Part shown: positions 4,784-42,187 of the stretch, piece after piece | Layout of the letters: each line of letters opens with the position of its first letter | Numbering within the stretch: the stretch's first letter is position 1 | From: Balneolales bacterium | GTDB lineage: Bacteria > Bacteroidota > Rhodothermia > Balneolales > HLUCCA01 | Direction: 5' to 3' | NCBI GenBank assembly: GCA_041749075.1 | Contig: JBGTBY010000016.1 | Location: 4,015 to 68,014 of the forward strand | Length of the DNA stretch: 64,000 nt | Notes under the pieces: generated by a model | The model's database searches: none | Seen by the model: the letters and a program-made list of their open reading frames with translations, nothing else | Told to the model about the DNA's origin: nothing | Program-made: the position numbers and the translations under genes

Positions 4784-5575
4784 ATGACCCCGTCAGGCAT
4801 TCTCACACTCACATCGGATTTCGGCTACCGAGATCATTATGTGAGTGCGATGAAAGCGGGCATCATCAGCATCCATCCGGATGTCAAAATGATCGATGTG
4901 TCGCATGATGTGCCTCCGCAAGACATCATGGCCGCGGCGTGGGTCACCAAACATTCCGCATTCCTGTATCCGGAAGGCACCATACATCTTGTTGTGGTGG
5001 ATCCCGGCGTCGGCACATCCCGAAAAGCCGTGGCGGTCCGCATCAAGGACCAATACTTTGTGGGTCCGGACAATGGGATTTTCTCCTTAGTGGCGGATGA
5101 TCTTCCGTACCAAGCCTATCAGCTGAGCAACACCAGTTTTTGGGGAAGCGACCGATCGAAAACCTTCGAAGGTCGGGATATTTTCGCCCCCGTCGCGGCG
5201 CATCTGAGCAAAGGCGTGCCCTTGGCCGATGTGGGCGACCGCATCAAACAGTTGACGATCTATCGCTGGGCCATTCCCGTCGCCGATAAAGAAGGCATTC
5301 AAGGATGGGTGGTGCACATCGACCGGTATGGAAACCTCATCACGAACATTCCGGGCGACGTGATACAACAATTTCAGAACCGTCGCGGCGTGCGGATCTA
5401 CATCGGAAGCACCATCTTGAAAACCATCGTGAATACCTTCGGGGATGTGAAACAGGGCGAAGCGATGGCCTTCATCGGCAGCACCGGCATGCTCGAAGTG
5501 GGCGTGAACACCGGAAACGCCGAGCAACTTCTTGGTGTATATAAAGGTGCGGCGGTGAGTCTTGTGTTTGGTTAG
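4784..5575 (+). CDS. SAM hydroxide adenosyltransferase / SAM-dependent halogenase family (DUF62)
   Basis: TSDFG, VVDPGVGT, GPDNG, TFEGRDIFAP and IDRYGNLITN motifs. Confidence 0.92.
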   Translation: MTPSGILTLTSDFGYRDHYVSAMKAGIISIHPDVKMIDVSHDVPPQDIMAAAWVTKHSAFLYPEGTIHLVVVDPGVGTSRKAVAVRIKDQYFVGPDNGIFSLVADDLPYQAYQLSNTSFWGSDRSKTFEGRDIFAPVAAHLSKGVPLADVGDRIKQLTIYRWAIPVADKEGIQGWVVHIDRYGNLITNIPGDVIQQFQNRRGVRIYIGSTILKTIVNTFGDVKQGEAMAFIGSTGMLEVGVNTGNAEQLLGVYKGAAVSLVFG

Positions 5576-5611
5576 TTGCTTGTTGTTAGTGGTTTGTTGC
5601 GCGATGCCTTT

Positions 5612-5638
5612 CCGGGGCGGATGCGATCCGCCCTTACA
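5612..5638 (-). repeat. REP-like palindrome
   Basis: Minus strand reads GTAA-GGGCGGAT-CGC-ATCCGCCC: a GTAG-like tetranucleotide followed by a GC stem. Confidence 0.5.
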
Positions 5639-5671
5639 TAGGATGATTCTTTCATCTTTTCATCTCTTCCC

Positions 5672-5696
5672 CCTTCCTACTTCCTACTTCCTACTT
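5672..5696 (+). repeat. Heptamer tandem repeat (CTTCCTA)x3
   Basis: cttcctacttcctacttcctactt directly before ATG 5697. Confidence 0.85.
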
Positions 5697-6488
5697 ATGA
5701 CTCTACGCTCCCACGACGGCACAAAGAAAATCCAAATCCCTTTAGAAGCCAAACACTTGGCCAAGAAGTACAACGCGGTGTTCACGCAAGGGGATGGGAC
5801 CGAGATCCGGGTTGCGGATAACGTCATCGATGTGTTAGGGAAGCGGGATGTGCGCACCACGATGGCGCAAAACACGAATTTCATTCCGTTCACGGCGAGT
5901 CTGTATGAAGATACCTGGCGGGTGAAGTCGATCGGAATTTTGTCCGGACAAGATTTCAGCATCGACGACGAAACCAAGCGCCTCGTGGATTGGCTCGAAC
6001 CGAAAGCCGGCGAGTGGGTGATGGATGTGGGATGTTCGTCGGCGGTATATGCGCGTGCGCTGGCCAAAGCGGCGCCGGATGCAAACGTCGTGGCCGTCGA
6101 CATGTCACGGGCGATGATGAAGGAAGCGCGCCAACGTGCCTTGAATGATGCGCTGGACATGTACTTGGTGCGCGCCGACGCGTCGGACATGCCGTACTTC
6201 AATGCGAGCTTCGACAAGTTGGCCATGGGCGGAACGCTCAATGAGTTGCACGATGCGGCCAAGGTGCTGTATGAATGCCGACGCATTCTGAAGACCAATG
6301 GAAAATTCTTCCTGATGTATTTGTTGAAGGCGGAAAGCTTCGCAGGACGAGTGGCTCAGAAGTCCGCCGAATTGGGAGGGATTTCGTTTTGGTCGAAGAG
6401 CGAGGCGGAGGGACTCTTCAATCGCTGCGGTTTCCAGATTGAGCGCCGGGAAACATTGGGTATCGTGGATTTTGTGGTTCTAGGGTAA
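5697..6488 (+). CDS. Class I SAM-dependent methyltransferase (UbiE-like)
   Basis: VMDVGCSS motif I, VAVDMS and RADASDMPY. Start moved to ATG 5697 because the upstream extension is translated repeat sequence. Confidence 0.85.
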   Translation: MTLRSHDGTKKIQIPLEAKHLAKKYNAVFTQGDGTEIRVADNVIDVLGKRDVRTTMAQNTNFIPFTASLYEDTWRVKSIGILSGQDFSIDDETKRLVDWLEPKAGEWVMDVGCSSAVYARALAKAAPDANVVAVDMSRAMMKEARQRALNDALDMYLVRADASDMPYFNASFDKLAMGGTLNELHDAAKVLYECRRILKTNGKFFLMYLLKAESFAGRVAQKSAELGGISFWSKSEAEGLFNRCGFQIERRETLGIVDFVVLG

Positions 6489-6581
6489 CAAGCTAATCAA
6501 GTACTCATGTACTCAAGTGAAGAATCTTGCTTGAGTACGTGTTCTTTCTTGAGTACTTGTATTTCTTGAGTACTTGAGTAC
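6488..6581 (+). repeat. GTAC-octamer repeat unit A (left inverted repeat)
   Basis: 85/94 ungapped identity to the reverse complement of 8008-8101; built from GTACTCAA/TTGAGTAC units. Confidence 0.9.
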
Positions 6582-7561
6582 TAGTTTCCAGACAGCAAAT
6601 ACGTCTCGATCGTTGGCTTCTTAGGATCCGTTTCATTCATCGCATAAAGTCGGTTTTCGACGATGGCAAGAATCCTGTGAGATTCAGTCAGCCGCAATAT
6701 CACCTTCTCACTTCCTGTATCCAATGAATGACGTATGATGTGCTTTTCGCCATTGTCCATCACATGATCATAGATAAGATCGGATTGTGACACCACTGTG
6801 AATTGTCGCCAAACGGGCTGGTAGCCACTTATGCCAGCTCGGTTCAGCCCTCCAAGTATCCGATCATTCAATCGTTTGGGTGGGGGTCTCACATTCAGTT
6901 CCTTCCTGGATAGTTGACGCGATGTCATATTGAACTCCCATAACACAGGATAATCTCCATTCTGCATTTGGAGAATTGAAGCCGATACATGGACATCCAA
7001 CACATTGGAAGCTGGAGTGACGCGCGATGATCCATCCTTCATTGTCAATTCGAACGTTGTAAGCTCTTCCGGATTTCTGAATTCGGCATCATATCGAACG
7101 AGTTTGATGATGTCTTTTGTCCGCCTTCGATTGATTTCGGAAAACAAGACGATATAAGACTGATTGTGTTGTACCACATTCAAGGGATAAAACCCGTCAC
7201 GCGGTCTGAAAGCGACTTCGCGAACGGGTTTTATTTGTCCATTTTCAAATCGGAAAACAATGAATTTCATGGAACCCGATTCAATCACAACGATTTCAGA
7301 TTCGTTTACGACATTGAATCCGATTGTCTGACTCATCTCCATCGGTCCTCGTCCCTTTTTCCCAAATCGGCCGATTGTATTGAATGACTCATCCATCGCC
7401 AAGAAATGATACTCGGGATGACCGGCAACCATTCCGATGAATCCATGGGTACCAAATGAAATCATTCGACCTGAATTCATCCAGTCGGTGGATTCCAGTC
7501 GGATTGTCTCAATCGGTGGGGTGAGAAAAAGAATAAAAGGGAGTAGTAAAGGAAAAGGCAT
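6581..7561 (-). CDS. Secreted 6-bladed beta-propeller-like hypothetical protein
   Basis: Hydrophobic N-terminus and a FGKKGRGPMEM motif (GxxGxGPxE, typical of TolB-like 6-blade propellers); visibly more AT-rich than its neighbours. Confidence 0.65.
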   Translation of the reverse strand: MPFPLLLPFILFLTPPIETIRLESTDWMNSGRMISFGTHGFIGMVAGHPEYHFLAMDESFNTIGRFGKKGRGPMEMSQTIGFNVVNESEIVVIESGSMKFIVFRFENGQIKPVREVAFRPRDGFYPLNVVQHNQSYIVLFSEINRRRTKDIIKLVRYDAEFRNPEELTTFELTMKDGSSRVTPASNVLDVHVSASILQMQNGDYPVLWEFNMTSRQLSRKELNVRPPPKRLNDRILGGLNRAGISGYQPVWRQFTVVSQSDLIYDHVMDNGEKHIIRHSLDTGSEKVILRLTESHRILAIVENRLYAMNETDPKKPTIETYLLSGN

Positions 7562-7576
7562 CTGTCAATAATAACA

Positions 7577-7647
7577 CAAGTACTCAGGTGCACAAGAACA
7601 CAAGTGGAAAACCTGGCTTGAGTACGTGTTATTCCTTGAGTACTTGT
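7577..7647 (+). repeat. GTAC-octamer repeat unit B (internal direct copy of A)
   Basis: 7601-7647 matches 6514-6560 at 41/47 positions. Confidence 0.85.
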
Positions 7648-7655
7648 TTTATTTA

Positions 7656-7672
7656 ATACGTCAATGGCGTAT
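7656..7672. promoter_or_regulatory. Palindromic operator upstream of the HTH gene
   Basis: ATACGTCAATGGCGTAT, 14/17 self-complementary. Confidence 0.55.
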
Positions 7673-7699
7673 CCTAAGTAGACATCTTAGTGGAGAAAC

Positions 7700-7987
7700 A
7701 TGAAAGAAGCATTGTTTAACGAATTGGTCGATAGTGTTCGTGAATTCAAGGCGATTCATAAAGGCGAACGGAAGCCATCGCGAGTGACCACGTTAAAAGA
7801 ACCGGATGTTGCAGCCATCCGCCAAAAACACCAATTGAATCAGGAAGAATTCGCGGCTTTGCTAGGTATTAGTGTGGGGACGCTTCGAAATTGGGAGCAA
7901 GGACGACGCAAACCTCATGGTCCCGCAAAAGTGTTGCTGACCATTGCTGATAAGCAACCTAAAGCACTCATCGAGTCATTGTCTTAA
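7700..7987 (+). CDS. XRE-family HTH protein (HigA/NadS-like antitoxin)
   Basis: DVAAIRQKHQLNQEEFAALLGISVGTLRNWEQGRRKPHGPAKVLL; GGAG RBS; no toxin gene adjacent. Confidence 0.88.
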   Translation: MKEALFNELVDSVREFKAIHKGERKPSRVTTLKEPDVAAIRQKHQLNQEEFAALLGISVGTLRNWEQGRRKPHGPAKVLLTIADKQPKALIESLS

Positions 7988-8007
7988 TAAGTACTCAAGA
8001 AGAATAG

Positions 8008-8101
8008 GTACTCAAGTACTCAAGTAATTCAAGTACTCTAGGAAGAACAAGTACTCAAGCCAGATTCTTCACTTGAGTACTTGAGCACTTGATAAGCTTG
8101 T
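8008..8101 (-). repeat. GTAC-octamer repeat unit C (right inverted repeat)
   Basis: Reverse complement of unit A with 9 mismatches; an extra partial unit lies at 7989-8007. Confidence 0.9.
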
Positions 8102-8106
8102 CTTAC

Positions 8107-8190
8107 TGTCCGAATCCGAACACCTTTTCGAACAGAATCGGACAATCTCGGGGCTAATTCCCGCTCCATCGCGCTTGGCATGTTCTTTGA
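8107..8190 (+). promoter_or_regulatory. Sigma-54 promoter with tandem activator sites
   Basis: TGTCCGAATCCGAACA (8107-8122), CGAACAGAATCGGACA (8129-8144) and TTGGCATGTTCTTTGA (GG at 8177). Confidence 0.7.
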
Positions 8191-8228
8191 ATAGAGTGGT
8201 AGACATACGCACTTGACCCGCTCTTCTC

Positions 8229-10604
8229 ATGTTTTTTAAGACCATCCTCCGGAATCTGAAGAAGCACAAAGGCTTCGCATTCATCAATATCGCCGGATTG
8301 TCGTTCGGAATCACCGGCGCGCTGATTCTGTTTCTGATCGTCCGCTTCGATATGGGCTTCAATGCCGAGCCCGATGCCGACCGCATCTACCGCATGGTGG
8401 CCAATGTGGATCGATTCAATGAAGTAAGGACTGAAAGCGGAATCCAGAACCCATTTGCCGAAGCGTTTCGCACGGATTTCCCTGAGTTGGAAGCGCAATC
8501 CATGGTGGATCAGAATTTCACATCACAAGTCGTCTCTGTGATTCGAGACGATGGCCAACTCGTGCGTTTCGAGGAAGGGGATGAGATGATTCTCGTGGAG
8601 CCCGAATTTTTCAAGATGTTCCCCCGGCGTTGGCTTGCCGGCGATCCGGTGTCCGCACTCAGCATTCCGAACTCGGTCGTGGTGTCCGAATCCATCGCCA
8701 AAAAGTACTTCAATACCACGGATGTGATGGGGAAAACCATTCGGTTTAATGGAGAACCATCCACCATCAATGGTGTGGTGAATGATGGACATCGCCAATC
8801 GGATTTGAGATTCAACATATTCAGACCGTTTTTGACGGCGCAAGGACGTCCGGGCTGGAACACGACCTCATCCAACACCCAATATTTTCTGAAGCTGCCG
8901 GTGGGGATGTCGAAAGAGGATGTGGAATCACGTTTGGCCGATTTCAACCTGAAACACATGGAAGAGGAGGAGGCCAAAGCCGTGCGCCGGTTCCTTCAGC
9001 CGTTGTCGGACATGCACTACAACGATGAGTTCGATCAGTTTTTTGGTGGCACAGTCACCTATCAGGAACTGGGTTCGCTCAGTTTGGTCGGCATTCTGCT
9101 GATTCTCATTTCGTGCATCAATTTCGTGAATCTGAACACGGCTCTGGCGGTGAACCGAGCAAAGGAAGTGGGTTTAAGAAAAGTGATGGGAAGCAGCCGT
9201 GCCCAGTTGATCGCCCAATACATGGGAGAAACGGTCCTTGTCACCTTTATTTCGTTTTTACTCGCTTTGGTTCTCACCGAATTGTCGTTGCCGATGATGC
9301 AAGACATTTTATCACGTCCGTTCGGATTGGACCTGTTTTCGGATGCATCCATCCTGATTTTTCTGATCGTATTATTGATTGTGGTGACCCTCGTCGCAGG
9401 CTTGTATCCCGCGTTCGTATTATCCAGTTTCCAGCCGATCGATGCCTTGAAGCATGCGGTGAAAATGAAATCGGATCGGGGCATTACCCTTCGCAAAAGC
9501 TTGGTGGTGTCGCAATTCGTCATCACTCAAATCCTGATCATTGCAACGCTCACCATTCGCTCTCAGATGGAGTATTTCCGGAATGCGGATTTGGGCTTCG
9601 ATCGGGAAGCCGTGGTTCAGACATCCATTCCGAGTCGTGACACCGCAACCATCGATCGACTCAAAGCCTCGCTTCGCTCGGATCCGTCCATCCTCGATTT
9701 CACGTTTTCCAATACCGGCGCGGCATCGAACGGTACGTGGAACACCATTGCACAATATGTCCGTGAAGGCGAAGAACCGTTGCGAACCCGCACGCAGTTC
9801 AAATCCACCGATAACCGGTTCATCTCCACCTATGGAGTCGCGTTATTGGCGGGTTCGGATTTCGGAGAGGTCGATAGTCTGAACGGACTGATCGTGAATG
9901 AGCAATTCCTGCAGTCGATGAATCTGGCTGATGATATGCAAGCTGCGATCGGAATACCCATTCAATCCATGGGTCGCGAGATACCGATTCAAGGCGTGAT
10001 GCGGAATTTCAACACCACATCCCTTCATGATCCAATCGGGCCGGTCATGCTCATGACCCGATCGGATTACTTCTTGCTTGCGATTCGGATCGATATGGAT
10101 CAACGCCAACGGGCGTTGGCCACATTGGAAGAGGCATGGACCGAGGCGTTCCCGGAACGGATTTACGAGTATCAGTTCCTAGACGAATCCATCGCTGAAT
10201 TTTATGACAATGAGGAAGTCGCCGCACGCTTGATGAATTTGTTCACCATACTCACGATCCTGATCGGAAGTCTCGGTTTGTTCGGCTTGGTGAGCCATAT
10301 CGCCGTGCAACGCACCAAAGAAATCGGAATTCGCAAAGTGATGGGAGCCGATAATGGCACCATCGTCATGATGTTCGTGCGCGATTTCGGAACCTTGCTC
10401 ATCGTGTCGTTCGCAATCGCCGCTCCGATTTCGTGGTGGTTGATGCGCCTCTGGCTGGAGAATTTCACCTATCGCATCGAGGTTGGTCCGGCGGTGATGT
10501 TAAGCGGGGCCTTGTTATCCATCCTCATCGCGGCGATCACGGTTGGTTACACCACATACACCTCATCCCGCGCCAACCCCATCGACTCCCTTCGCTACGA
10601 ATAA
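8229..10604 (+). CDS. MacB/FtsX-like ABC transporter permease 1 (duplicated type)
   Basis: FINIAGL, INFVNL..R.KEVGLRKVMG, DLGFD, QRTKEIGIRKVMGA and ANPIDSLRYE motifs. Confidence 0.93.
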   Translation: MFFKTILRNLKKHKGFAFINIAGLSFGITGALILFLIVRFDMGFNAEPDADRIYRMVANVDRFNEVRTESGIQNPFAEAFRTDFPELEAQSMVDQNFTSQVVSVIRDDGQLVRFEEGDEMILVEPEFFKMFPRRWLAGDPVSALSIPNSVVVSESIAKKYFNTTDVMGKTIRFNGEPSTINGVVNDGHRQSDLRFNIFRPFLTAQGRPGWNTTSSNTQYFLKLPVGMSKEDVESRLADFNLKHMEEEEAKAVRRFLQPLSDMHYNDEFDQFFGGTVTYQELGSLSLVGILLILISCINFVNLNTALAVNRAKEVGLRKVMGSSRAQLIAQYMGETVLVTFISFLLALVLTELSLPMMQDILSRPFGLDLFSDASILIFLIVLLIVVTLVAGLYPAFVLSSFQPIDALKHAVKMKSDRGITLRKSLVVSQFVITQILIIATLTIRSQMEYFRNADLGFDREAVVQTSIPSRDTATIDRLKASLRSDPSILDFTFSNTGAASNGTWNTIAQYVREGEEPLRTRTQFKSTDNRFISTYGVALLAGSDFGEVDSLNGLIVNEQFLQSMNLADDMQAAIGIPIQSMGREIPIQGVMRNFNTTSLHDPIGPVMLMTRSDYFLLAIRIDMDQRQRALATLEEAWTEAFPERIYEYQFLDESIAEFYDNEEVAARLMNLFTILTILIGSLGLFGLVSHIAVQRTKEIGIRKVMGADNGTIVMMFVRDFGTLLIVSFAIAAPISWWLMRLWLENFTYRIEVGPAVMLSGALLSILIAAITVGYTTYTSSRANPIDSLRYE

Positions 10605-13440: not shown

Positions 13441-13514
13441 GTGTGACCAATGCCCGCAACTTGTGGCATCATCGACCTTATAAACGTCTTTCACAAATAT
13501 CTAACAGGTTGAGC

Positions 13515-14573
13515 ATGAAACGCATCATTACTATTTTTTTAGTCAGTCTTCTCTATACCGTACCTGGTCACGCACAAATCAACTTAGGAGTCAATGAAAC
13601 GGGCCTGAGTATCGGTAATTCTCGAAATTGGATGGGTGTCCGCTTGAATTTCAGAGATTTGGATATCGAAGAAATTCGTGGTGTGAACATCACCATTTGG
13701 TCGCCCTATGAACCAGCGACCGGCCGAATTCGTGGGCTCGCCATCGGTCTCCCTTCCACAGGCGCCGGATCCATTGATGGAATCGGAATCGGCCTGCTCG
13801 GAATTGCCGCCACTGATAATCTGAATGGTTTCATGGTTGGTGGTGTGGGCGCTGGGGCAGGAAACAACATCACAGGTGTGGCATTTGGTGGACTTGGTCT
13901 TGGTGCCGGTGGTGATATTTCGGGTATCGCATTCGGTGGATTCGGATTGGGTGCTGGTGGCGACATCACCGGAATTTCGTTCGGTGGATTCGGATTGGGC
14001 GCCGGCGGCGACATCACAGGTATTTCGGTCGGCGGATTCGGATTGGCCGCAGGTGAGAATCTCACCGGAGCTTCCGCAGCTTTATTCGGGATGGGAGCCG
14101 GAAACAATATGACCGGCATCGGAATCGCCGGATTCGGGATGGGAGCGGGTGGCGACATGACTGGTATTCATATCGCAGGCTTCGGACTCGGAGCCGGTGG
14201 TGATATCACAGGATTTCAGTTTGGTGGATTCGGACTTGGAGCCGGCGGAACCATCACAGGCGCCAACATCGCGCTGGTTGGAATTGGAGCCGAAGCCATT
14301 AATGGATTCAGCTTGTCTGCGACCATGAGAGCCGATCACATTTCGGGCCTCACGCTTGCCCCTGCATTTGCCCGCATCAATCCGGGTGGTGAACTTCATG
14401 GCATCAGTTTGGCAGGGTATCATGAAGTCCGTGGCCATACAAGTGGGTTGACCATCGGCATCATCAACTACACACGCACACTCAAAGGCGTGCAATTGGG
14501 ACTGATCAACATGGTCGATCGTAACCCGCGCGGACGTCGTGTCTTGCCATTGGTGAACTGGAATTTCAATTGA
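13515..14573 (+). CDS. Secreted glycine-rich 16-aa repeat protein (LA_2272-like surface repeat)
   Basis: Signal peptide MKRIITIFLV...AQ; about ten GLGAGGDITGISFGGF-type repeats; C-terminus GVQLGLIN...LPLVNWNFN. Start moved to ATG 13515. Confidence 0.8.
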   Translation: MKRIITIFLVSLLYTVPGHAQINLGVNETGLSIGNSRNWMGVRLNFRDLDIEEIRGVNITIWSPYEPATGRIRGLAIGLPSTGAGSIDGIGIGLLGIAATDNLNGFMVGGVGAGAGNNITGVAFGGLGLGAGGDISGIAFGGFGLGAGGDITGISFGGFGLGAGGDITGISVGGFGLAAGENLTGASAALFGMGAGNNMTGIGIAGFGMGAGGDMTGIHIAGFGLGAGGDITGFQFGGFGLGAGGTITGANIALVGIGAEAINGFSLSATMRADHISGLTLAPAFARINPGGELHGISLAGYHEVRGHTSGLTIGIINYTRTLKGVQLGLINMVDRNPRGRRVLPLVNWNFN

Positions 14574-19707: not shown

Positions 19708-20145
19708 ATGACAACAGCCATTCTTATCGCAGCCTTCGTGCTGAATGTGAACACCTCACCCGCGAACGATCTGTTCAGCGCGGTGAAAATGAATGAAACC
19801 GCAAAAGTGGTGCATCTCGTCGCCAATGGGTTTGATGTGAATGCCACCGACCATCTCGGAATGACACCCTTGATGTATGCGTCGCGCCATGAGGATGGTG
19901 CCTTGATCGATTACCTGATTTCGCAAGGAGCGGATGTCAATGCGCAGAACAATGCCGGAGCGACGGCCATTTTCATCGCCACCCGCCATAATCGCTTATC
20001 GATTGTTGCAAAATTGATCACCGCAGGAGCGGATCTGTCCATCCGGAACGGTGAAGGACACCGGGTTCGTGATATCGCCCGCATGTACGATCGTCCGATG
20101 ATCGAAAGTCTGATCTCCGGACACCTTCGCTCACTGCGTAGTTAA
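19708..20145 (+). CDS. Small secreted ankyrin-repeat protein
   Basis: GMTPLMYA..LISQGADVNAQNNAGATAI repeats, AGGAG RBS, hydrophobic N-terminus. Confidence 0.9.
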   Translation: MTTAILIAAFVLNVNTSPANDLFSAVKMNETAKVVHLVANGFDVNATDHLGMTPLMYASRHEDGALIDYLISQGADVNAQNNAGATAIFIATRHNRLSIVAKLITAGADLSIRNGEGHRVRDIARMYDRPMIESLISGHLRSLRS

Positions 20146-21473
20146 AACCTCAATGTGAAGCTCGTCATGGATCCCGGTTCGCTCTGAACACTGAGGGATC
20201 CATGATGAAGCCTCATGATTTGTTTCGATAAGCTAAGACCGATGCCACTGCCGGTCTTTTTTGTTGTGAAAAAGGGGATGAAAATATTGGCGATCACCCC
20301 AGGTTCGATTCCAGGACCATTGTCCGACACCCGCATCAGCACGCGCCCTCTTTCATCCAACTGCGCCTGCAACACGATCACACCTTCCGCAGAATCGCTG
20401 AGCGCATCGCGCGCATTCAGAATGAGGTTGATCAGCACTTGTTCGATCAAGTCGCCATCCGCGGTCACTTCCAAACTTTCCGGCTCCACACTTCGAAGCA
20501 ATTGAATGGAACGTCCTTCCAATTCGGTCTCCATCAGCCGACACACATTGTCGAACAAGGATTCGATGCCCACGATCTGGTAATCCGGTTTGGGGATGCG
20601 GGTGAGCTGGCGATAGGTTTCCACGAAATGCAGGAGTCCTTCCGAGCGCCGCTGAATGGTTTCCAGCGCATTCCGGATGTCGCCCAGATCTTCTTTCGCG
20701 ATGGATTCGGTATCGGATATCAGCGTTTTGGATGTGGCCGCAAGCGAGGAAATCGGGGTCACGGAATTCATCATTTCATGGGTGAGAACCCGAATCAAGC
20801 TGTGCCACGCTTCCATTTCCTTCTCTTCCAATTCGCTCTGGATGTTCTGCAACGACACCAGCATCACGTGCCGGTCGCGCAATTTCATTTCCGTGGCGTG
20901 GATGGATATATGCAGGATGTCGTCTTGATGCGTCGTTTTCACCAAACGGCGTTCACCTGTTTTGATGGATGAGAGCACAGACACAAATTCCGGACTGAAA
21001 TACTCGAACGCGCGGATGGATCTAGGATTCGGATATCTCAGCATCCGCTTCGCCGCTCCGTTGTACAAATCGATCTCCCCATTCTGATCGTAGCTCAGCA
21101 AACCGATGCCCACGTGCTGAACCACGGTCTGCAAATAATGATAATGTTCTTCTTTCTCCGTGCGGGTCTTCTTGAAATGGGTGATGACCTCAGTGAACGC
21201 CTGATTCAGCTCGGCGAATGAATCTCCACTTTTGGTCGGGAATGTTTGTGTGAAATCCTCATATCGGATGGCACGTAAAAAACGCGACAAATCATGATTG
21301 GTTCGGTCCACAAATCGGAACAGAAGCCAAATTTGGACAAGTACACCAATGGCCAACAGGATGGTGGTGGCGAACAGGTTGGACGCCATGCCCAAGCTCA
21401 AGGCCAAAACAATGGTTCCGGTGAGCAAGCCCAACCGGATGATCATCTGAAATCGGAAATGCTTAAAGACCAT
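20142..21473 (-). CDS. Sensor histidine kinase (2 TM, PAS-like, HisKA, HATPase)
   Basis: LTHEMMNS H-box, EQVLINLILNA, DNGPG and FFTTKKTGSGIGL motifs. Confidence 0.95.
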   Translation of the reverse strand: MVFKHFRFQMIIRLGLLTGTIVLALSLGMASNLFATTILLAIGVLVQIWLLFRFVDRTNHDLSRFLRAIRYEDFTQTFPTKSGDSFAELNQAFTEVITHFKKTRTEKEEHYHYLQTVVQHVGIGLLSYDQNGEIDLYNGAAKRMLRYPNPRSIRAFEYFSPEFVSVLSSIKTGERRLVKTTHQDDILHISIHATEMKLRDRHVMLVSLQNIQSELEEKEMEAWHSLIRVLTHEMMNSVTPISSLAATSKTLISDTESIAKEDLGDIRNALETIQRRSEGLLHFVETYRQLTRIPKPDYQIVGIESLFDNVCRLMETELEGRSIQLLRSVEPESLEVTADGDLIEQVLINLILNARDALSDSAEGVIVLQAQLDERGRVLMRVSDNGPGIEPGVIANIFIPFFTTKKTGSGIGLSLSKQIMRLHHGSLSVQSEPGSMTSFTLRF

Positions 21474-22830
21474 ATTTTTCGATTCGTCTGTATAAAGCGG
21501 CGCGGGTGAGACCCAATTCGTTCGCCGCTCGGGTGATGTTGCCGTCGTATCGGTCCAATGCTCTGCGGATCACGGTCTTTTCCATGTTTTCCAGATCCAT
21601 TTCCTCCAATCCAACCGACCGATGATGGTTGGATGCGATCACATCCGCGGGTTCCAAGACATGCGTTTCACTCATGATCACCGCTCGCTCCATCGCATGC
21701 TGCAATTCACGGATGTTCCCAGGCCATGAATGATTCATCAACGCCGCTTCCGCCCCCACAGACAACATTGGTTCCACTTTTCGATACTTCTTGGCATACG
21801 TCTGAAGGAAATGGCGCGCCAGTTGCAACACATCCTTTCCTCGTTCACGAAGCGGCGGCAAGGAGATTTCAACGGTGTTGATTCTGTATAACAAATCCTG
21901 TCTGAAGGACTTCTCCCTCACCATATCATGGATCGGCATGTTCGTGGCGAAAATGAGTCGGGTGTCAAACGCCACAGGCTTGCTCGACCCCACTCGGGTG
22001 ACTTCCCGATTTTGAATCACCGTCAACAGCTTCGATTGCATGCTCAGCGACAAGTTGCCGATTTCATCCAAGAACAGACTTCCGCCATCGGCCACTTCAA
22101 ATCGGCCTGGGCGCTCATCCCTGGCATCGGTAAATGCACCTTTTGTATGGCCAAACAACTCACTTTCGAAGAGGGACTCGGTGATGGATCCCATATCCAC
22201 CGATAAAAATAATTCGTTCGAGCGTTCCGATCCCCGATGCAACGCCCGGGCAACCAGTTCTTTACCGGTACCATTTTCGCCTAGAATCAACACATTCGCA
22301 TCGGTTTTTGCCACTTTCTCAATCATGCGGAACACATCGCGCATGGGAGCCGAAGAGCCGATGATGTCGTGGTATGGCGTATCGAGGTCGCGTGAGAGCT
22401 GATGTTGCCTTGTGCGCCATTTCTCGACCTCGTGCCGCGTCTCACGAAGCGTGAGCGCCGATGCCAAAGTGGCCAGAAGTTTCTCGTTTTGCCACGGTTT
22501 CAGCACAAAGTCGGTGGCGCCTTCTTTCATTGCCCGAACGGCGGTTTCCACGCCGCCATAGGCCGTCATCAATACAACGACGGAATGCGGATCTCGGTCG
22601 CGGATTTCTTTCAACCAAAAAAATCCTTCATTGCCGCTGGCCACATCCCGCTTGAAATTCATATCCAGAAAAATGACATCAAATTCCTGCTCGTTCAGCA
22701 GTTCGGGTAACATGGCGGGATCGGGTGAGGTGAGCACCGTTTCGACATGCGGTTTAAGAACCATGCGCGCGGCGAAGAGAACATCCTCGTCGTCGTCGAT
22801 CACCAAAATTCGTCCCTTTTTCATAGACAT
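21463..22830 (-). CDS. Sigma-54-dependent (NtrC-family) response regulator
   Basis: Receiver DDD and DMNF, GENGTGKE, ESELFGHTKGAFTDA, WPGNIREL and a Fis-type HTH. Confidence 0.96.
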   Translation of the reverse strand: MSMKKGRILVIDDDEDVLFAARMVLKPHVETVLTSPDPAMLPELLNEQEFDVIFLDMNFKRDVASGNEGFFWLKEIRDRDPHSVVVLMTAYGGVETAVRAMKEGATDFVLKPWQNEKLLATLASALTLRETRHEVEKWRTRQHQLSRDLDTPYHDIIGSSAPMRDVFRMIEKVAKTDANVLILGENGTGKELVARALHRGSERSNELFLSVDMGSITESLFESELFGHTKGAFTDARDERPGRFEVADGGSLFLDEIGNLSLSMQSKLLTVIQNREVTRVGSSKPVAFDTRLIFATNMPIHDMVREKSFRQDLLYRINTVEISLPPLRERGKDVLQLARHFLQTYAKKYRKVEPMLSVGAEAALMNHSWPGNIRELQHAMERAVIMSETHVLEPADVIASNHHRSVGLEEMDLENMEKTVIRRALDRYDGNITRAANELGLTRAALYRRIEKYGL

Positions 22831-22898: not shown

Positions 22899-22984
22899 AC
22901 TGTCCGATATCGGACAGTATATTGTGCAGGAACGGACAACTTCAAGGTGATATATTGCCCCGTTCGGGTTGGCACAGGAATTGA
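22899..22984 (+). promoter_or_regulatory. Sigma-54 promoter with tandem activator sites
   Basis: Perfect 20-bp palindrome ACTGTCCGATATCGGACAGT (22899-22918), TGTGCAGGAACGGACA (22923-22938) and TTGGCACAGGAATTGA (GG at 22971). Confidence 0.8.
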
Positions 22985-27680: not shown

Positions 27681-30600
27681 TCAGTTCCGGTTCGATTTGT
27701 CCGGATACGACGGAGGAGCAGGTAACTTTTTCGCGGTTTCCAATTCTTTCAGGATTTCCTCGATACCGCGGATCAATTGCTGATCGGTGCCCGTGAATTC
27801 TTTATAAGGATCGTTATCGACGATGATGTCGGGATCCACGCCATATCCTTCGATAATCCATTCAGATCCATCGATGCTGTACAATGCGGATTCGGGCTTG
27901 TTCAGCGATCCCCCATCCACAAACGGAAGGCTTCCCCAGATGCCGACCACACCGCCCCAGCTCCGTTTTCCGACCAATTTTCCGAGTCCGGATGCGCGGA
28001 AACGATATGGGAAAATATCCCCATCCGATGCGGAGAATTCATCCATCAAGGTGATCATCGGTCCGGGCATCACGCCACCTGGGTTCGGGGTCGCGGCGCG
28101 ATCGCGGGCCCTCGACATCATGATCGCTTCGCGACGCAAGCGTTCGATGAGCATTGGCGAGACGTTACCACCTCCGTTTCCGCGGACGTCGATGATCAAC
28201 GCTTCTTTGTTTAACTGCGGGTAGTAATATTTGATGAACTCGTTCAAGCCGGTCGGACCCATATTCGGCACGTGGATGTAGCCCACGCGTCCGTTCGTGG
28301 CCGCTGTGACTTTCTCAATATTCGTGCTCACCCAATCGAAATACCGAAGCTGGGATTCATCACCAATCGGCTTCACGGTCACCTGTCGAGCACCTTGCGG
28401 ATTCGGACGCGAATTCACGGTCAGAATCACCGGTTTGTCGACCGTTTGGATGAACGCTTCTTGGATGTTCGTCATCGTGTTCACGGCTTTTCCATTCACC
28501 GCGATGATGAAATCACCTGCGTTCACATTCACACCCACTTCGGTGAGGGGCGAGCGACGATTGGAGATCCAGTTTTCGCCACGGTAGATTTTCTTGATCT
28601 GAACATAGCCGGAGCGGTCGCGAACGAGATCCGCGCCAAGCAAGCCCATTGGAATGCGTGGGGCGGATGGGATGTCGCCACCACCCACATAGGCATGACC
28701 CGCGTTCAGTTCCCCGATCATTTCTCCAAGGATGTAGCTCAGATCGGCGCGCGAGTTGATGCCGGCGATCCAAGGCTGATACGAATCGCGAACGGCCACC
28801 CAATCCACGTTATGCATATTCGGATCGTAGAAGAAATCCTTCATCTGGCGCCAGCTTTCATGGAACACCTGATTCCACTCGGCGCGGCGATCGAGATGCA
28901 TCTGCAACCCGGACACATCCACTTTCGCGGTCAAATCCACAGTCGCTTTCGGGAGATCGATGATCGAATACGCACCCTGCTTGACGACAATCATTTTCTT
29001 TCCATCCGCCGAAACAGTATAGCCATTGATGGTGCCCAGATTGGTCTCTTTCTGGTCTTTCAAATTGTACAACAAAAACTGCGCCTGTGTATCGGTGCGG
29101 CCATTTCTCATATAATAGACCGCATCGCCGATCACTGTCAGATTGTAATAGTTGGATGCGGGCCCTGGCAAAACGGTGACCCGATTTCCGATCCCATCCA
29201 CATCCACTTTGTTCGCTGTTGCGGCAGGTTTGACCTCCGCCGCGTTCACTTCGTCATGTTTTGGCGCGAAGGGCGAGGGCGTGTCCTTCGACAGTGTGAC
29301 GAAATAAATACGATTCATATCGGTATAGACATGGTTCCATTCGGTTTGCGAATAAATGGGGTTGAAATCACGCCCCGATATGAAAAACAGATACAATCCA
29401 TCCGAACTGAAGGTGGGCGAACCGGAGTTATACCATGTATCAGTCACCGGCCATGCTTTTTTCTGATCCACCGAATACAACATCACGCGGCCGTTTGTGA
29501 GATGCTCATTTCGCGAGTAGGTGATCCATTTCGAATCGGGGGACCATGAGAAATTGCGGATGTCCCACGACTCGGCCCGATCCACAACCGTGATCGCTTT
29601 TGTGGCCACATTCAGAAGATTCAGGCGCATCGCGCGGTCGCTGAACAAGATGAATTTCGAGTCGGGTGACCAGCTCAGATCGAACTTATAGGTTCCGCCA
29701 CCGGACGTGAGTTGAACCGCAGCAGAAGATCCATCCTGCGCCACGCTCCATACCTCATCGGTACCCGAGGCATCGCTGATGTAGGCGATGGATTTCCCAT
29801 CCGGCGACCATGCCGGGCTCCGATCGTGCACACCCGAGGAGTTTGTAAGATTCCGCGTGATGCCGTTTTTGGCCGGGACCGAAAACAGATCGCCACGGGC
29901 CGAGAACACGACGCGACTTCCATCCGGGGCCAAATCACCACCGGCGATGGATTCGTGAACCTTTACCAAACCATCGCGCGACGAGGCGAAATCTTCGCGG
30001 ATATGAACCGGAACGCGGGTGGCGCGCTCGGTCGCTAAATCGAAGCGCCATAACCATCCCGCTTGCTCGAACACGATCGCGTTATCACCGATGGACGGAA
30101 ATTTGATATCGAAATTGGTATACGTTGTGAGCTGACGCGTTTGCTTCGTGGCGGTGTCGTACACGAACAAGTTCATTTTTTCGGACGCATCGCGATCGGA
30201 CAAATAGTAGATCCGATTTCCTTTCCACATCGGGATGATGTCTTGCTGCGTGTTGTTCGTAATGTTTTCAACGGATTTCGTTTCGAAATCGAACACCCAT
30301 ATATCGTCGGCCATGCCACCGCGATATCGTTTCCAGGTGCGGAATTCGCGGAATACGCGATTGTAAGCCATTTTTTTGCCATCATCGGAAAAACTCATGA
30401 ATCCGCCGCGAGGCACCGATAATTGGGTGGCGATATCGCCATTCAGCGGAGCGGAATACAAGGATCCGATGAAATCATTGAAGGTGTGCATGCGCGAGCG
30501 GAAGATCACGGATTGTCCGTCGGCAGACCAATCCATCACGATGTTATTCGGGCCCATGCGATCGGTCACATCGTCGCGACCAAGAGTTGCCGTGTAGGTG

Positions 30601-30911
30601 ATGCGGGTTGGAACGCCGCCTTGCGCCGGCATGACGTACACTTCGGTGTTGCCATCATATTGGCCGGTGAATGCCAATTGCGACCCGTCTGGTGAGAAGC
30701 GCGGGAAGAGTTCCATGCCCTCATGGGTGGTCAGTTTCCGGGCGGTTCCACCAGCGGAAGCGACGGAGTACAGGTCTCCGGCATAGGAGAAAACAATCGT
30801 ATTACCGTGAGTGGTAGGGAAGCGAAGCACACGGGCTTCGTCGGGAGATTGCGCGTTCAGATTGGATGAAATTAGCGCGCAGAATGCAAAGAGAAGAGAA
30901 AAAAGTCGCAT
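27681..30911 (-). CDS. Tricorn protease homologue (S41; PD40 propellers plus PDZ)
   Basis: FSPDG repeats, GELNAGH, GYIHVPNM, DVRGNGGG, SASDGD and GKRSWGG motifs. Confidence 0.95.
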   Translation of the reverse strand: MRLFSLLFAFCALISSNLNAQSPDEARVLRFPTTHGNTIVFSYAGDLYSVASAGGTARKLTTHEGMELFPRFSPDGSQLAFTGQYDGNTEVYVMPAQGGVPTRITYTATLGRDDVTDRMGPNNIVMDWSADGQSVIFRSRMHTFNDFIGSLYSAPLNGDIATQLSVPRGGFMSFSDDGKKMAYNRVFREFRTWKRYRGGMADDIWVFDFETKSVENITNNTQQDIIPMWKGNRIYYLSDRDASEKMNLFVYDTATKQTRQLTTYTNFDIKFPSIGDNAIVFEQAGWLWRFDLATERATRVPVHIREDFASSRDGLVKVHESIAGGDLAPDGSRVVFSARGDLFSVPAKNGITRNLTNSSGVHDRSPAWSPDGKSIAYISDASGTDEVWSVAQDGSSAAVQLTSGGGTYKFDLSWSPDSKFILFSDRAMRLNLLNVATKAITVVDRAESWDIRNFSWSPDSKWITYSRNEHLTNGRVMLYSVDQKKAWPVTDTWYNSGSPTFSSDGLYLFFISGRDFNPIYSQTEWNHVYTDMNRIYFVTLSKDTPSPFAPKHDEVNAAEVKPAATANKVDVDGIGNRVTVLPGPASNYYNLTVIGDAVYYMRNGRTDTQAQFLLYNLKDQKETNLGTINGYTVSADGKKMIVVKQGAYSIIDLPKATVDLTAKVDVSGLQMHLDRRAEWNQVFHESWRQMKDFFYDPNMHNVDWVAVRDSYQPWIAGINSRADLSYILGEMIGELNAGHAYVGGGDIPSAPRIPMGLLGADLVRDRSGYVQIKKIYRGENWISNRRSPLTEVGVNVNAGDFIIAVNGKAVNTMTNIQEAFIQTVDKPVILTVNSRPNPQGARQVTVKPIGDESQLRYFDWVSTNIEKVTAATNGRVGYIHVPNMGPTGLNEFIKYYYPQLNKEALIIDVRGNGGGNVSPMLIERLRREAIMMSRARDRAATPNPGGVMPGPMITLMDEFSASDGDIFPYRFRASGLGKLVGKRSWGGVVGIWGSLPFVDGGSLNKPESALYSIDGSEWIIEGYGVDPDIIVDNDPYKEFTGTDQQLIRGIEEILKELETAKKLPAPPSYPDKSNRN

Positions 30912-30971
30912 GATGACGGAAGAGTTTAAGGTGAATAACTCGGACCCGTCAATGTACCAAAATCCCCCGAC

Positions 30972-32033
30972 TCAAAAGTAAACCTGCCACTGCGCGGTGA
31001 TCAGATGTATGGGATCTACTATTGGCGAATCGTTCCGTTTCAATGAATATGCGAAGGTCAACCGGTTCGCCCAATCCAATAACTTGTAATGCGCCCCAGC
31101 GGTGAGATAGGTGTTGGGTCCACGATCGATGCGATTTCCTTGGGTATTCCCATCATAACGCTCCGCACGGGCGAACACTTCCACATCGTCTCGGATCAAA
31201 TGCCCAGCGAATAGGGTGACACCTGCAGTGGCATGCCTAGCGGAAAAATGGACACCGATCAGGTCCAACTTTACGCGAGTGGGTTGCTCGCCCACCCTAC
31301 TTCCCCAATACACATGCGCCGACGCATCCGAATATCGCCTAGGATCAGATGCTCTGGTGGGATTGTGTCCGATATGAACACCTGCTTCGGAGTTGGGATG
31401 TGATTTCGGCAAATACCGGGCCATGCCTGAAACTGCGATGGCGGCTGTATTCTGTCCGAAATGATTGTTTCCATCCGATACTCCACCTCGGATATTTCGG
31501 GAGTTGCTACCACTATGTATGAATGAGCGAAGCTCGAATTCGTCTAAGCGGTGGACCACTTCCACACCGTAAGTTCTCGCATCGGCACCGATCGTCGTGC
31601 GAGCCCAGTTCTCGGCGATCGCGGCACGGTCCAGTGCGTCAATTTCATGATGTAGTGTGAGGGACATGGACTGCGGCTGTGCGCCTACAAATCGACCGAC
31701 TCGAAACATCGTGCGATCCGTCACATCCCATTCCGCACGCATGTCGGTGAGTGTGGCCGTTGGCCCGCTGCCTTCGATTTGAAGGAACAATCTCACTTTC
31801 GGGTTGATGGTGCCATAAAAGCGAATGCGGGCACGCCTCACACCAATTCCATATTGTTTTTCCGGAGCGAAGGGATCCAGATTCGGATTGCTTAAGTAAC
31901 TGACCCGCGATTGCAGGGTGCCGCCGATGCGGAGTTGCATGTCGCCACTGGAGATGGTGACGGGTGTTTGGGCCTTACCGATAGACGAAGCAGTCAACAG
32001 TAGGGCAAAGATGAGATACTTAATAGTTGCCAT
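30972..32033 (-). CDS. Porin (OprO/OprP-like)
   Basis: Signal peptide, GVRRARIRFYG and C-terminal QWQVYF beta-signal. Confidence 0.78.
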   Translation of the reverse strand: MATIKYLIFALLLTASSIGKAQTPVTISSGDMQLRIGGTLQSRVSYLSNPNLDPFAPEKQYGIGVRRARIRFYGTINPKVRLFLQIEGSGPTATLTDMRAEWDVTDRTMFRVGRFVGAQPQSMSLTLHHEIDALDRAAIAENWARTTIGADARTYGVEVVHRLDEFELRSFIHSGSNSRNIRGGVSDGNNHFGQNTAAIAVSGMARYLPKSHPNSEAGVHIGHNPTRASDPRRYSDASAHVYWGSRVGEQPTRVKLDLIGVHFSARHATAGVTLFAGHLIRDDVEVFARAERYDGNTQGNRIDRGPNTYLTAGAHYKLLDWANRLTFAYSLKRNDSPIVDPIHLITAQWQVYF

Positions 32034-32076
32034 TCCCTAAAATGAGGAAAATCGTCAAAAAATTGAATGACTTTCG

Positions 32077-33588: not shown

Positions 33589-33609
33589 GATCGAATATAC
33601 ATCAATCTC

Positions 33610-33627
33610 ATTGCGTGTACATACAAT
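33610..33627. promoter_or_regulatory. Palindromic operator upstream of marR
   Basis: ATTGCGTGTACATACAAT, 14/18 self-complementary, in the 56-bp divergent gap. Confidence 0.55.
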
Positions 33628-33644
33628 AATGAGTATGTTCTCGT

Positions 33645-34076: not shown

Positions 34077-34080
34077 GATC

Positions 34081-34731: not shown

Positions 34732-34740
34732 CGAATTCTT

Positions 34741-36795: not shown

Positions 36796-36803
36796 TTTCA
36801 TCC

Positions 36804-39368: not shown

Positions 39369-39370
39369 CC

Positions 39371-39404
39371 GATTCCTGATTCCTGATTCCTGATTCCCGA
39401 TTTC
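39371..39404 (+). repeat. Heptamer tandem repeat (GATTCCT)x~5
   Basis: gattcct gattcct gattcct gattccc gatttc directly before the meaB ATG. Confidence 0.9.
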
Positions 39405-40322: not shown

Positions 40323-40338
40323 CCTTTTTTTACACCAA

Positions 40339-40387: not shown

Positions 40388-40423
40388 ATTCAACCTACAA
40401 CAAACCACTAATTACAAACGATT

Positions 40424-41238: not shown

Positions 41239-41240
41239 GG

Positions 41241-42185: not shown

Positions 42186-42187
42186 GC

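Follow-up and report, generated by a model that had tools for sequence, protein, structure and literature searches.

The minimal mobile elements of Neisseria are variable islets that lie between conserved flanking genes and are exchanged by homologous recombination. REP and REPIN sequences are non-coding, non-autonomous intergenic hairpins that measure about 100 nt or more and are assembled from shorter inverted repeats; REPINs are scattered in tens to hundreds of copies and are accompanied by a RAYT gene. In integron cassettes the attC sites are co-oriented and each closes a cassette, and CALINs are found without a nearby integrase. The dif sites, finally, are short Xer-binding sites of about 28 bp, and dif modules often carry toxin–antitoxin pairs. 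Variable islets and repeat-associated islands are a topic of the literature (e.g. excerpts of PMC3082526), passenger genes between terminal inverted repeats are described for mobile insertion cassettes and MITE-type elements in excerpts of PMC3913671 and PMC4133298, and Xer-dependent dif modules are reported on Acinetobacter plasmids in excerpts of PMC6449649 and PMC13141974.

The locus described here lies between a methyltransferase gene and a permease gene in the window, by which we mean the whole 64-kb stretch of the source genome that was analysed. It was read against 3 kb of one relative, a contig from a metagenome-assembled genome (MAG) that we refer to as L002. Two cargo genes, P0001 and P0002, are enclosed and separated by three copies of a structured, undescribed repeat, units A, B and C. 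The features are as follows, with coordinates in the window.

5697–6488, plus strand: left flank, class I SAM-dependent methyltransferase gene, 263 aa from its ATG (Pfam Methyltransf_11/25/31)
6488–6582, plus strand: unit A, consisting of a left arm, the loop TGAAGAATCTTG and modules of CTTGAGTAC; a copy of the complete unit that is cut short at the 3' end
6565–6582, plus strand: CTTGAGTACTTGAGTACT, the left-breakpoint copy of the 18-nt direct repeat; homology to L002 ends at 6576
6577–8064: segment of 1,488 bp absent from L002, reaching from the last bases of A through P0001, B and P0002 into C, most of which it includes
6581–7561, minus strand: cargo gene 1, P0001, 326 aa
7570–7653, plus strand: unit B, a shorter, diverged direct copy, sharing about 75% identity with A, with C and with the solo unit of L002
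7700–7987, plus strand: cargo gene 2, P0002, 95 aa, NadS-family/HigA2-like HTH protein
7988–8101, minus strand: unit C, an inverted, nearly full copy in which only the outer 3' arm is missing
8072–8089, plus strand: CTTGAGTACTTGAGCACT, the right-breakpoint copy of the 18-nt direct repeat; homology to L002 starts again at 8065
8102–8191, plus strand: right flank, conserved segment with a TGTCCGA/TCGGACA dyad and a sigma-54-type −24/−12 match, upstream of the permease gene
8229–10604, plus strand: right flank, first of four MacB/ADOP-like duplicated permease genes

Comparison of the methyltransferase–permease junction in a relative, as the original prediction had proposed, revealed an 'empty' site. 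In the reverse complement of the L002 contig, positions 67–939 align to 5704–6576 of the window and positions 940–1064 to 8065–8191, and the two blocks are contiguous, with DNA identities of 90.7% on the left (5704–6576) and 94.5% on the right (8102–8191 plus the last 37 nt of C). At the junction L002 holds one complete unit of about 125 nt, between the methyltransferase stop codon and the conserved permease promoter region. Because L002 lacks 6577–8064 and has kept one complete unit, we regard the locus as a real gain-or-loss islet; the cassette is a presence/absence polymorphism with its breakpoints inside the repeats, seen in one empty and one filled state. The two 18-nt repeats at the breakpoints (6565–6582 and 8072–8089) are identical at 17 of 18 positions (94%).

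The methyltransferase orthologues of L002 and of a further cluster, P0129, are both 263 aa long, with 93.5% and 94.3% amino acid identity, respectively, to the window protein, and a 308-aa reading of the window gene, from a TTG at 5562, is probably too long. The permease at the same position in L002 is only 29–35% identical to any of the four window permeases.

Over the 90 columns shared by A, the reverse complement of C and the solo unit, the informative sites split 5 : 4 : 4 in a star-like pattern, and polarising gain against loss by these site patterns was rejected as uninformative. The longest contig given for the cluster of P0003, the orthologue of P0001, is 109,431 bp, and the same length is given for the cluster of P0129, which suggests that a second genome carries a P0001 orthologue and the methyltransferase on one contig. 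This link is an indirect one, as the protein on that contig may be another than the representative of its cluster. The P0129 methyltransferase is closer to that of L002 than to that of the window (96.6% against 94.3%), and together these points lean tentatively towards loss of the cassette in L002.

In the repeat unit, a left arm and a loop of 12 nt are combined with three to five CTTGAGTAC modules at spacings of 8 or 17–18 nt; the complete form, of about 125 nt, has in addition an outer right arm, which pairs with the left one. The arrangement GTACTCAAG-N12-CTTGAGTAC, with none expected, occurs without mismatch in A and C and with two mismatches in B, which bears out the octamer build and the fold around an N12 loop that had been claimed. 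There are 13 occurrences of CTTGAGTAC in the window against 0.16 expected, 12 of them within 6509–8080. All three units fold better than their own shuffles on both strands, whether treated as RNA (z of −3.7 to −5.3) or as DNA (z of −3.8 to −4.9), and they are hairpins of two short inverted repeats, as REP and REPIN sequences are. In the L002 solo unit the outer arms pair over roughly 30 bp. Visual inspection of the inner stem for compensatory changes turned up a single two-sided change in C and two disruptions in L002, numbers too small to use.

Units A (6488–6581) and C (8008–8101) are inverted copies over 94 nt, 90% complementary and matching ungapped at 85 of 94 positions (blastn E 9e-29), exactly as the original prediction had it. 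Unit B is a direct copy of A, with 80% identity over 70 nt (7581–7650) and a best ungapped stretch of 41/47 (6514 against 7601), also as predicted. The end of C at 8101 stands, and its start moves from 8008 to 7988, with a size of 114 nt, when it is measured against the complete unit of L002. The solo unit of L002 is identical to A at 81 of 90 positions and to C at 96 of 110. Between A and C the motifs are conserved, and so are the loops and spacers (85/94); among A, the reverse complement of C and the solo unit, the differences amount to whole 8-nt and 17-nt modules. The copies vary in length and in their ends, being truncated at different modules. The 90% identity of A and C could be maintained by gene conversion or by selection on function.

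Each unit has a defined place in the locus. A lies between the convergent stops of the methyltransferase gene and P0001, B occupies the divergent region between the starts of P0001 and the HTH gene, and the outward end of C adjoins the conserved promoter segment. The stop codon of P0001 (6581–6583) adjoins A, and that of the HTH gene (7985–7987) is followed by the motifs of C from 7991; each cargo stop thus adjoins a unit in the same relative orientation for both genes, a feature of the layout that had been noticed from the outset.

Within the window no copy of the unit was found outside 6488–8101 by blastn or with a unit HMM. A pattern that matches all four known copies (A, B, C and the L002 solo unit) was scanned against a collection of 185,579 species and found the unit at one locus in the L002 MAG, which is a lower bound because repeats tend to drop out of MAG assemblies, and in none of the other genomes. 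The scan returned 50 loci, of which 49 are plain tandem arrays; by TRF these 49 have periods of 8, 16 or 40 (20 loci), of 9, 18 or 27 (23 loci) or of 17, 25 or 34 (three loci), with no array called in the remaining three. They were rejected as unit copies, their best unit-HMM score being 28 bits against 76–96 bits for true copies, including 76 bits for B. The unit was also rejected as a known RNA family: at E values up to 1 Rfam gave nothing but sub-threshold miRNA-hairpin matches at the locus, and 20 loci with related motifs yielded only a tRNA. The octamer strings do not occur in the literature searched. Elsewhere in the window a second, unrelated octamer-array hairpin lies in a divergent promoter region (43177–43327), and 13 of the 24 tandem arrays of the window fall in non-coding DNA, which makes up 4.9% of the sequence.

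The first cargo gene, P0001, lies on the minus strand as originally described, and the propeller label given to it then comes from profile evidence only. The protein is probably a six-bladed NHL/DUF5128-type beta-propeller that is predicted to be secreted; its N-terminus is hydrophobic and, by reading, resembles a signal peptide. For PF17170 (DUF5128), which has a cut-off of 22.9 bits, P0001 reaches 13.5 bits, three of its four remote relatives score above that cut-off (P0126–P0128, 25.6–38.2 bits) with P0125 giving no match, profile A2 finds NHL propellers in the PDB at 7e-14, and the Atlas lead for P0001, obtained through its orthologue P0003, stands at 0.90–0.93. Relatives are few, with three besides itself among 5.8e9 proteins and four more matches in a library of 1.84e9 proteins (two at about 1e-9 and two at 7–8e-4). 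PADLOC gave no defence-system match for P0001.

The second cargo gene is, as claimed, an HTH gene on the plus strand, and its type can now be refined. P0002 scores 69.9 bits against the NF041265 cut-off of 60, which places it among NadS/HigA2-type antitoxins, it matches HTH_3 and MqsA_antitoxin in Pfam, and in the PDB it finds HigA-2 at 2e-10. No toxin gene lies beside it, and the 138 nt upstream (7562–7699) hold unit B and no ORF. In the plasmid NadS loci L051 and L052 a RelE/ParE toxin gene lies directly upstream, the position taken here by unit B, and Acinetobacter plasmids often carry NadS homologues with a toxin gene (319 of 864 records). In the literature searched, NadS antitoxins brought up only papers on other subjects. 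Judged from these matches and its surroundings, P0002 is a predicted orphan antitoxin-type HTH protein. Its membership of a known defence system was considered and rejected, PADLOC having returned only generic HTH models.

The two-gene cargo looks foreign by composition. The module is AT-richer than its flanks, as had been noted (GC 0.39–0.46 against 0.50–0.60), and GC3 is 0.465 in P0001 and 0.427 in P0002 against 0.50–0.71 in 11 neighbouring genes. A plasmid or phage origin was rejected, there being no DNA match to 6480–8200 in plasmid and phage collections and no tblastn match to P0001 on plasmids. The conserved segment at 8102–8191 lies outside the repeat. Its TGTCCGA/TCGGACA dyad, in the 90 bp adjoining C, recurs at 22899–22918, and the same combination of dyad and promoter is present at 22899–22984 beside a gene for a sigma-54-dependent response regulator. 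A role for the units as an enhancer (UAS) of the sigma-54-type permease promoter was rejected, since the dyad common to these sites is TGTCCGA/TCGGACA and not the octamer motif.

The explanation that we favour, and hold to be somewhat better than an even bet, is that of a foreign two-gene islet within three local copies of a hairpin element, passively gained or lost through its repeats and flanks; we infer that gain and loss proceed by recombination using homology and palindromes. The repeats would be passive, providing homology and palindromic structure. A deletion that joins the 18-nt direct repeat of A to the one in the outer arm of C would collapse the cassette to a solo unit, and the A/C inverted repeat may aid such a deletion by bringing the 18-nt repeats together. 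In the reverse direction, a cassette with outward-facing inverted units would replace a solo palindrome, the homology being provided either by both palindrome arms or by the conserved flanks alone. Simple homology can account for gain and loss because the 18-nt direct repeat, the palindromic arms and the conserved flanks are all present, and a dedicated recombinase would not be required. The octamer-array build of the unit may be the local form of a genome-wide intergenic trait, one that would change by slippage of whole modules. The passive model leaves two things unexplained, namely why the cargo stop codons adjoin truncated unit ends in the same relative orientation and how A, B and C first arose.

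A second explanation, which we consider unlikely and which does not exclude a passive islet, is that the units are functional elements, either 3' hairpin terminators or stabilisers or else operators for the NadS-type HTH protein, and that the indel is incidental. On the plus strand of A, a terminator-like hairpin with a T-rich tail (6506–6541) between the convergent stops suits the methyltransferase gene, and the solo unit of L002 comes after the same methyltransferase stop codon. Both cargo genes end at a unit in the same orientation, but the T-rich tail of C is on the wrong strand for termination of the HTH gene. A simple terminator scan of 30001–50000 found 18 candidates against 20.6 expected, and because this is no excess of canonical terminators the scan is no guide to termination in this genome. 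In favour of operators, B occupies the upstream region of the HTH gene, where by analogy an autoregulating antitoxin would bind, and the second octamer-array hairpin of the window also lies in a divergent promoter region; the conservation of loops and spacers together with the motifs nevertheless looks like recent copying or gene conversion and not like convergence of binding sites.

Still less probable, in our estimation, is a non-autonomous DDE-type transposon, either a mobile insertion cassette or a MITE-flanked composite, in which A and C would be terminal inverted repeats with subterminal transposase-binding 9-mers and the transposase would act in trans. Inverted repeats of 94–114 nt with the same end outward, 9-mers repeated inside the units at 8 or 17–18-nt spacing, a cargo of foreign composition, absence of the element from a relative and the lack of a transposase inside it all fit such an element. 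The original prediction had already reported neither a target-site duplication nor a recombinase, and both statements hold: the sequences flanking the cassette, GGGTAA| and |TCTTAC, do not form a direct repeat, and no recombinase, transposase or HUH gene is found among the 48 window ORFs of at least 90 aa (all 48 compared with NCBIfam and 21 with Pfam). Against a transposon, then, stand the missing target-site duplication, an 'empty' site in L002 that is not clean and holds a complete unit, the absence of another copy in the 64 kb and in the other genomes scanned with a single locus in the L002 MAG, and the plasmid and phage collections, which gave no DNA match and no parent IS.

The weakest rival, a site-specific cassette system of the integron attC/CALIN or Xer dif-like kind, in which the hairpins would be sites for a recombinase encoded elsewhere, P0001 being excisable (A–B) and the HTH gene invertible (B–C), can draw on the unit that follows each stop codon in the same relative orientation, on hairpins that form on both strands, on the one unit retained in L002 as a recombination site would be, and on the NadS homologues with toxin genes on Acinetobacter plasmids (319/864), where excerpts of the literature report dif modules, but it is very improbable given units that are not co-oriented, that differ in length and ends with truncation at different modules and that are very low in copy number, given a window in which neither a tyrosine nor a serine recombinase was found, and given breakpoints in simple direct repeats for which homology alone is enough. 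We give equally little credence to the related proposal that an enzyme encoded elsewhere acts on the units as folded DNA, in which case a gene with its 3' unit would be the cassette format, the solo palindrome a docking site, and A–B excision and B–C inversion the expected reactions.

The original prediction is supported in part. The cassette is present here and absent from a relative, and it looks foreign by composition, but nothing points to a gene-capture or shuffling system, with copies at one locus, no target-site duplication, and a search for a linked recombinase or HUH (RAYT) gene that drew a blank among the 48 window ORFs; its search for further units likewise found none beyond the locus in the window or in the other genomes scanned, with one locus in the L002 MAG. 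The functional likeness that it drew to integron attC and REPIN sites finds no support, given units that are not co-oriented, a low copy number and the lack of an HUH gene in the window, and the same holds for a MIC-like system. Two findings had been named beforehand as counting against it: a repeat unique to the locus, which is what the data reached show, and an invariant gene content, which the empty site in L002 contradicts.

If the passive reading of the islet is true, the locus is a small, clear case of a structured intergenic palindrome that marks a hot spot for foreign genes, with the solo palindrome and the inverted-repeat-flanked cassette as interconvertible states, and it helps in interpreting how strains differ in little-studied Bacteroidota-type genomes. 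Should an enzyme act on the hairpin units, they would represent a new cassette system, one of gene capture at hairpin sites with no relation to integrons or REPINs. A wider lead, which may be more general, is that short tandem arrays of 7–9 nt, some of them pairing into long hairpins, fill intergenic DNA here; such arrays also turn up in several other phyla.

Set against the known systems, the locus shares something with each. It resembles integron cassettes and CALINs in having a folded repeat directly after each ORF and, as in CALINs, no integrase nearby; it differs in that A and B are direct but C is inverted, in having only two genes, in showing no attC-type core sites by eye and in the absence of IntI among the 48 window ORFs. 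Like dif modules it is small, bounded by inverted sites and devoid of its own recombinase, but its borders are octamer arrays of 70–125 nt (8–9-nt repeats), and it lies on a chromosome and lacks the toxin gene. With the type II toxin–antitoxin systems (RelE/ParE–NadS, HigBA2-like) it shares the antitoxin type, whereas the adjacent upstream toxin gene is absent. Mobile insertion cassettes and MITE-type elements also have terminal inverted repeats (85/94 here), passenger genes and no transposase inside; the differences are the lack of a target-site duplication, an empty site with a complete unit, a third, internal copy and no parent IS in the plasmid and phage collections searched. The unit is, like a REPIN, a non-coding intergenic hairpin made from shorter inverted repeats, and unlike a REPIN it is found at this locus only, with no HUH (Y1 RAYT) gene in the window. 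The minimal mobile elements share with the locus conserved flanks, a strain-variable fill, border repeats, no mobility gene, and gain and loss explicable by recombination in flanks or repeats. To our knowledge natural transformation is not known for this organism. What sets the locus apart from them is that its borders are inverted, structured palindromes of about 125 nt, a solo copy of which marks the empty site.

The indel formed by the two-gene cassette is real, and repeats bound it. A scan of a genome collection (185,579 species) with a pattern matched by all three repeat units of the window (A, B and C, copies of an octamer-array hairpin) returned 50 loci, one of which, L002, in a MAG recorded as uncultured Chitinophagales, is the orthologous site. 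Its alignment follows window 5704-6576 at 90.7% identity and runs unbroken into 8065-8191 at 94.5%; the intervening 1,488 bp (6577-8064) are missing and one complete unit of ~125 nt stands there instead. The original prediction looked to relatives for an empty junction, and that of L002 is indeed empty of cargo. The breakpoints fall on an 18-nt direct repeat (6565-6582 and 8072-8089, 17/18 identical). The features concerned are as follows.

Left part of the window: recJ, pheA, dnaN, a SAM hydrolase gene and a class I methyltransferase gene
5697-6488: best reading of the class I methyltransferase gene
6488-6581: unit A, truncated at its 3' end relative to the complete unit
6581-7561, minus strand: cargo gene P0001, with (by reading) a hydrophobic start resembling a signal peptide
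7570-7653: unit B, a shorter copy, about 75% identical to the complete unit
7700-7987: cargo gene P0002, NadS family (69.9 bits, cut-off 60)
7988-8101: unit C, an inverted copy
Right of the cassette: four MacB/ADOP-like permease genes

The complete unit in L002 runs from a left arm through a loop and four CTTGAGTAC modules to an outer right arm, the two arms pairing over roughly 30 bp, and since C matches it in everything except this outer arm, C truly spans 7988-8101. The predicted 94-nt inverted repeat between A and C was recovered (6488-6581 against 8008-8101, 90% complementary, 85/94 ungapped, blastn E 9e-29), as was the direct partial copy B, in which 7581-7650 matches A at 80% over 70 nt, the best 47-nt stretch at 41/47. 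The window contains 13 copies of the 9-mer CTTGAGTAC where 0.16 would be expected, and 12 of them fall within 6509-8080. The core GTACTCAAG-N12-CTTGAGTAC is matched exactly by A and C, and with two mismatches by B. Each of the three units folds better than its own shuffles on both strands. The copies differ from one another by whole 8-nt and 17-nt modules, which is what slippage would produce. Neither blastn-short nor nhmmer with a profile of the four known copies found a further unit in the 64-kb window, and elsewhere the scan found the unit at one locus in the L002 MAG and in none of the other genomes of the collection. The other 49 scan loci, mainly from one Acidobacteriota MAG (10), two Ignavibacteriales MAGs (4 and 3) and several Bacteroidales-type MAGs, are plain short tandem arrays, scoring at most 28 bits with the unit HMM against 76-96 bits for true copies. 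Rfam holds no family for the unit, none of the papers searched contains the octamer strings, and the octamer-array hairpin of the islet is previously undescribed.

Both cargo genes have a low GC3 (0.465 for P0001 and 0.427 for P0002, against 0.50-0.71 in eleven neighbouring genes). Among 5.8e9 proteins, P0001 finds just three relatives apart from itself (85-87% identity), and an exhaustive HMMER scan added four remote matches, two at ~1e-9 and two at 7-8e-4. Three of these four score above the cut-off of the DUF5128 six-bladed propeller model and the fourth has no match; the P0001 family profile matches PDB structures of NHL propellers at 7e-14, and an Atlas lead through the orthologue P0003 agrees. 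As P0001 itself reaches 13.5 bits with the DUF5128 model, below the cut-off of 22.9, and the assignment comes from remote relatives and a profile match, we consider it a probable propeller. The nearest named homologues of P0002 are from Balneolales, and among solved structures the antitoxin HigA-2 comes closest to it. Of the 12 plasmid homologue records listed, 10 also show under the match a gene for a RelE/ParE toxin, which in the two records inspected sits immediately upstream, overlapping the nadS start. The 138 nt upstream of P0002 are filled by unit B and hold no ORF, and P0002 is thus an orphan antitoxin-type gene.

Over the 90 columns shared by A, the reverse complement of C and the solo unit of L002, 76 are identical, and 5, 4 and 4 sites support the three possible groupings. 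A and C thus resemble each other no more than they resemble the L002 unit, and their duplication is accordingly not younger than the split of the two genomes. As to the direction of change, these site patterns appear to favour neither gain nor loss. The P0001-orthologue and methyltransferase-orthologue clusters are listed with the same longest contig, of 109,431 bp, and the representative methyltransferase P0129 is 96.6% identical to that of L002 against 94.3% to that of the window; these two points lean, indirectly, towards loss in L002. Of the P0002 homologues with at least 60% identity in those listings, none comes with the 109,431-bp contig, a faint hint that the two cargo genes may not always travel together.

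The cassette is not alone in its octamer-array build, given the whole-module differences among copies, a second hairpin in the window and its intergenic tandem arrays. This second, unrelated hairpin (43177-43327, DNA fold z -5.85) has (ACGTGAAA)n at 43177-43220 (x5.5) and the complement at 43290-43327 (x4.8), with arms 77 nt apart, and fills the intergenic space between two divergent genes, one glyoxalase/dioxygenase-like and the other for an acyl-CoA dehydrogenase. Of 24 TRF arrays in the window, 13 lie in the 4.9% of non-coding DNA. Short-period (6-10 nt) intergenic arrays are seen, for example, at 5650-5696, 39371-39402, 46264-46297, 53941-53967 and 62134-62205, with GATTCCY heptamers at both 39371 and 62134.

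Among the scan loci, (CTTGAGTA)n-type octamer arrays, for which Rfam has no family, are present at many loci, most of them intergenic, of unrelated phyla (Acidobacteriota MAG: L003, L005, L012, L025, L032, L035, L040, L041, L042, L045; Ignavibacteriales MAGs: L009, L022, L033, L038, L044, L046, L049); by eye, in L022, L033, L040 and L045 the array forms one hairpin arm and an inverted array the other. An 18-nt tandem unit of two 9-mers, roughly GTGCCTTGAGTACTTARA, is intergenic in about a dozen Bacteroidales-type MAGs (L001, L007, L008, L010, L011, L014, L015, L018-L021, L023, L026, L030, L031, L034, L039, L043, L047, L048, L050), and in both L019 and L039 it comes immediately after the stop codon of, apparently, the same gene, both coding ends reading like ...DHYRY (by eye).

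To the left, the longest methyltransferase ORF adds 5562-5696 from a TTG start and overlaps the upstream gene; orthologues have 263 aa from an ATG equivalent to 5697, two short tandem arrays lie in the 120 nt between the two starts, and immediately before its methyltransferase start the L002 sequence shows no alignment to the window. To the right, L002 homology stops at 8191 (window 8191-8229; L002 reverse complement 1053-2955). The permease that comes next in L002 shares only 29-35% identity with any of the window's four, the methyltransferase being at 93.5%, and the window reads ATGTTCTTTGAA then TAG where the long L002 ORF begins with the same codons; there is thus a second synteny break, or a gene replacement, just right of the cassette. 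Among the permease genes, the family-less ORF 13443-14573 contains a 48-nt tandem repeat (x3.8, 78% matches) at 13867-14046.

The 90 bp right of C, conserved with L002, are a separate feature, a TGTCCGA/TCGGACA dyad with a match to the sigma-54-type -24/-12 consensus. The same dyad and promoter pair recur before a MacA-like adaptor gene, beside a sigma-54-dependent response regulator gene, which excludes the octamer units as the enhancer of this promoter type. The two matches, TGGCATGTTCTTTGA and TGGCACAGGAATTGA (8105-8190 and 22899-22984), each have the dyads before them, one a perfect palindrome, ACTGTCCGATATCGGACAGT; they precede the permease cluster and the MacA-like adaptor/ABC ATPase operon, which probably form one regulon, and the response regulator and kinase lie at 20142-22830.

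On balance we lean, somewhat cautiously, towards a foreign two-gene islet within local octamer-array hairpin copies, gained or lost passively by recombination of repeats or flanks. Homology is enough to explain the change between presence and absence: recombination could proceed via the 18-nt direct repeats, via the palindromic arms (the two arms of the solo unit correspond to those of A and C that face outwards) or via the conserved flanks alone. Deletion between direct repeats can be stimulated by palindromes. The original prediction of a non-autonomous gene-capture or shuffling system is partly supported: the repeats are confirmed and the comparison that it proposed showed an empty junction in a relative, but nothing indicates a system, the unit being found only at this junction, with no recombinase in reach, no target-site duplication, an empty site that is not clean and units not co-oriented. 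No integrase, transposase or HUH family matched among the 48 window ORFs of at least 90 aa (NCBIfam for all 48, Pfam for 21). That the hairpins are sites of a cassette system whose enzyme is encoded elsewhere in the genome seems to us very improbable.

In form the locus recalls REPINs, mobile insertion cassettes, attC cassettes and dif modules. Of the families testable, namely REPINs, mobile insertion cassettes and integrons, each has defining features that the locus lacks. REPINs are marked by high copy number and a RAYT gene; the data searched show no such copy number and the window no such gene. Mobile insertion cassettes are expected to show a target-site duplication and a clean empty site, whereas no duplication is present here and the L002 site retains a complete unit. 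Integrons would have co-oriented sites and an integrase, whereas A, B and C are mixed in orientation and the window has no integrase. In its probable working the locus comes closest to islets of variable content that lie between conserved flanks and are exchanged by homologous recombination.
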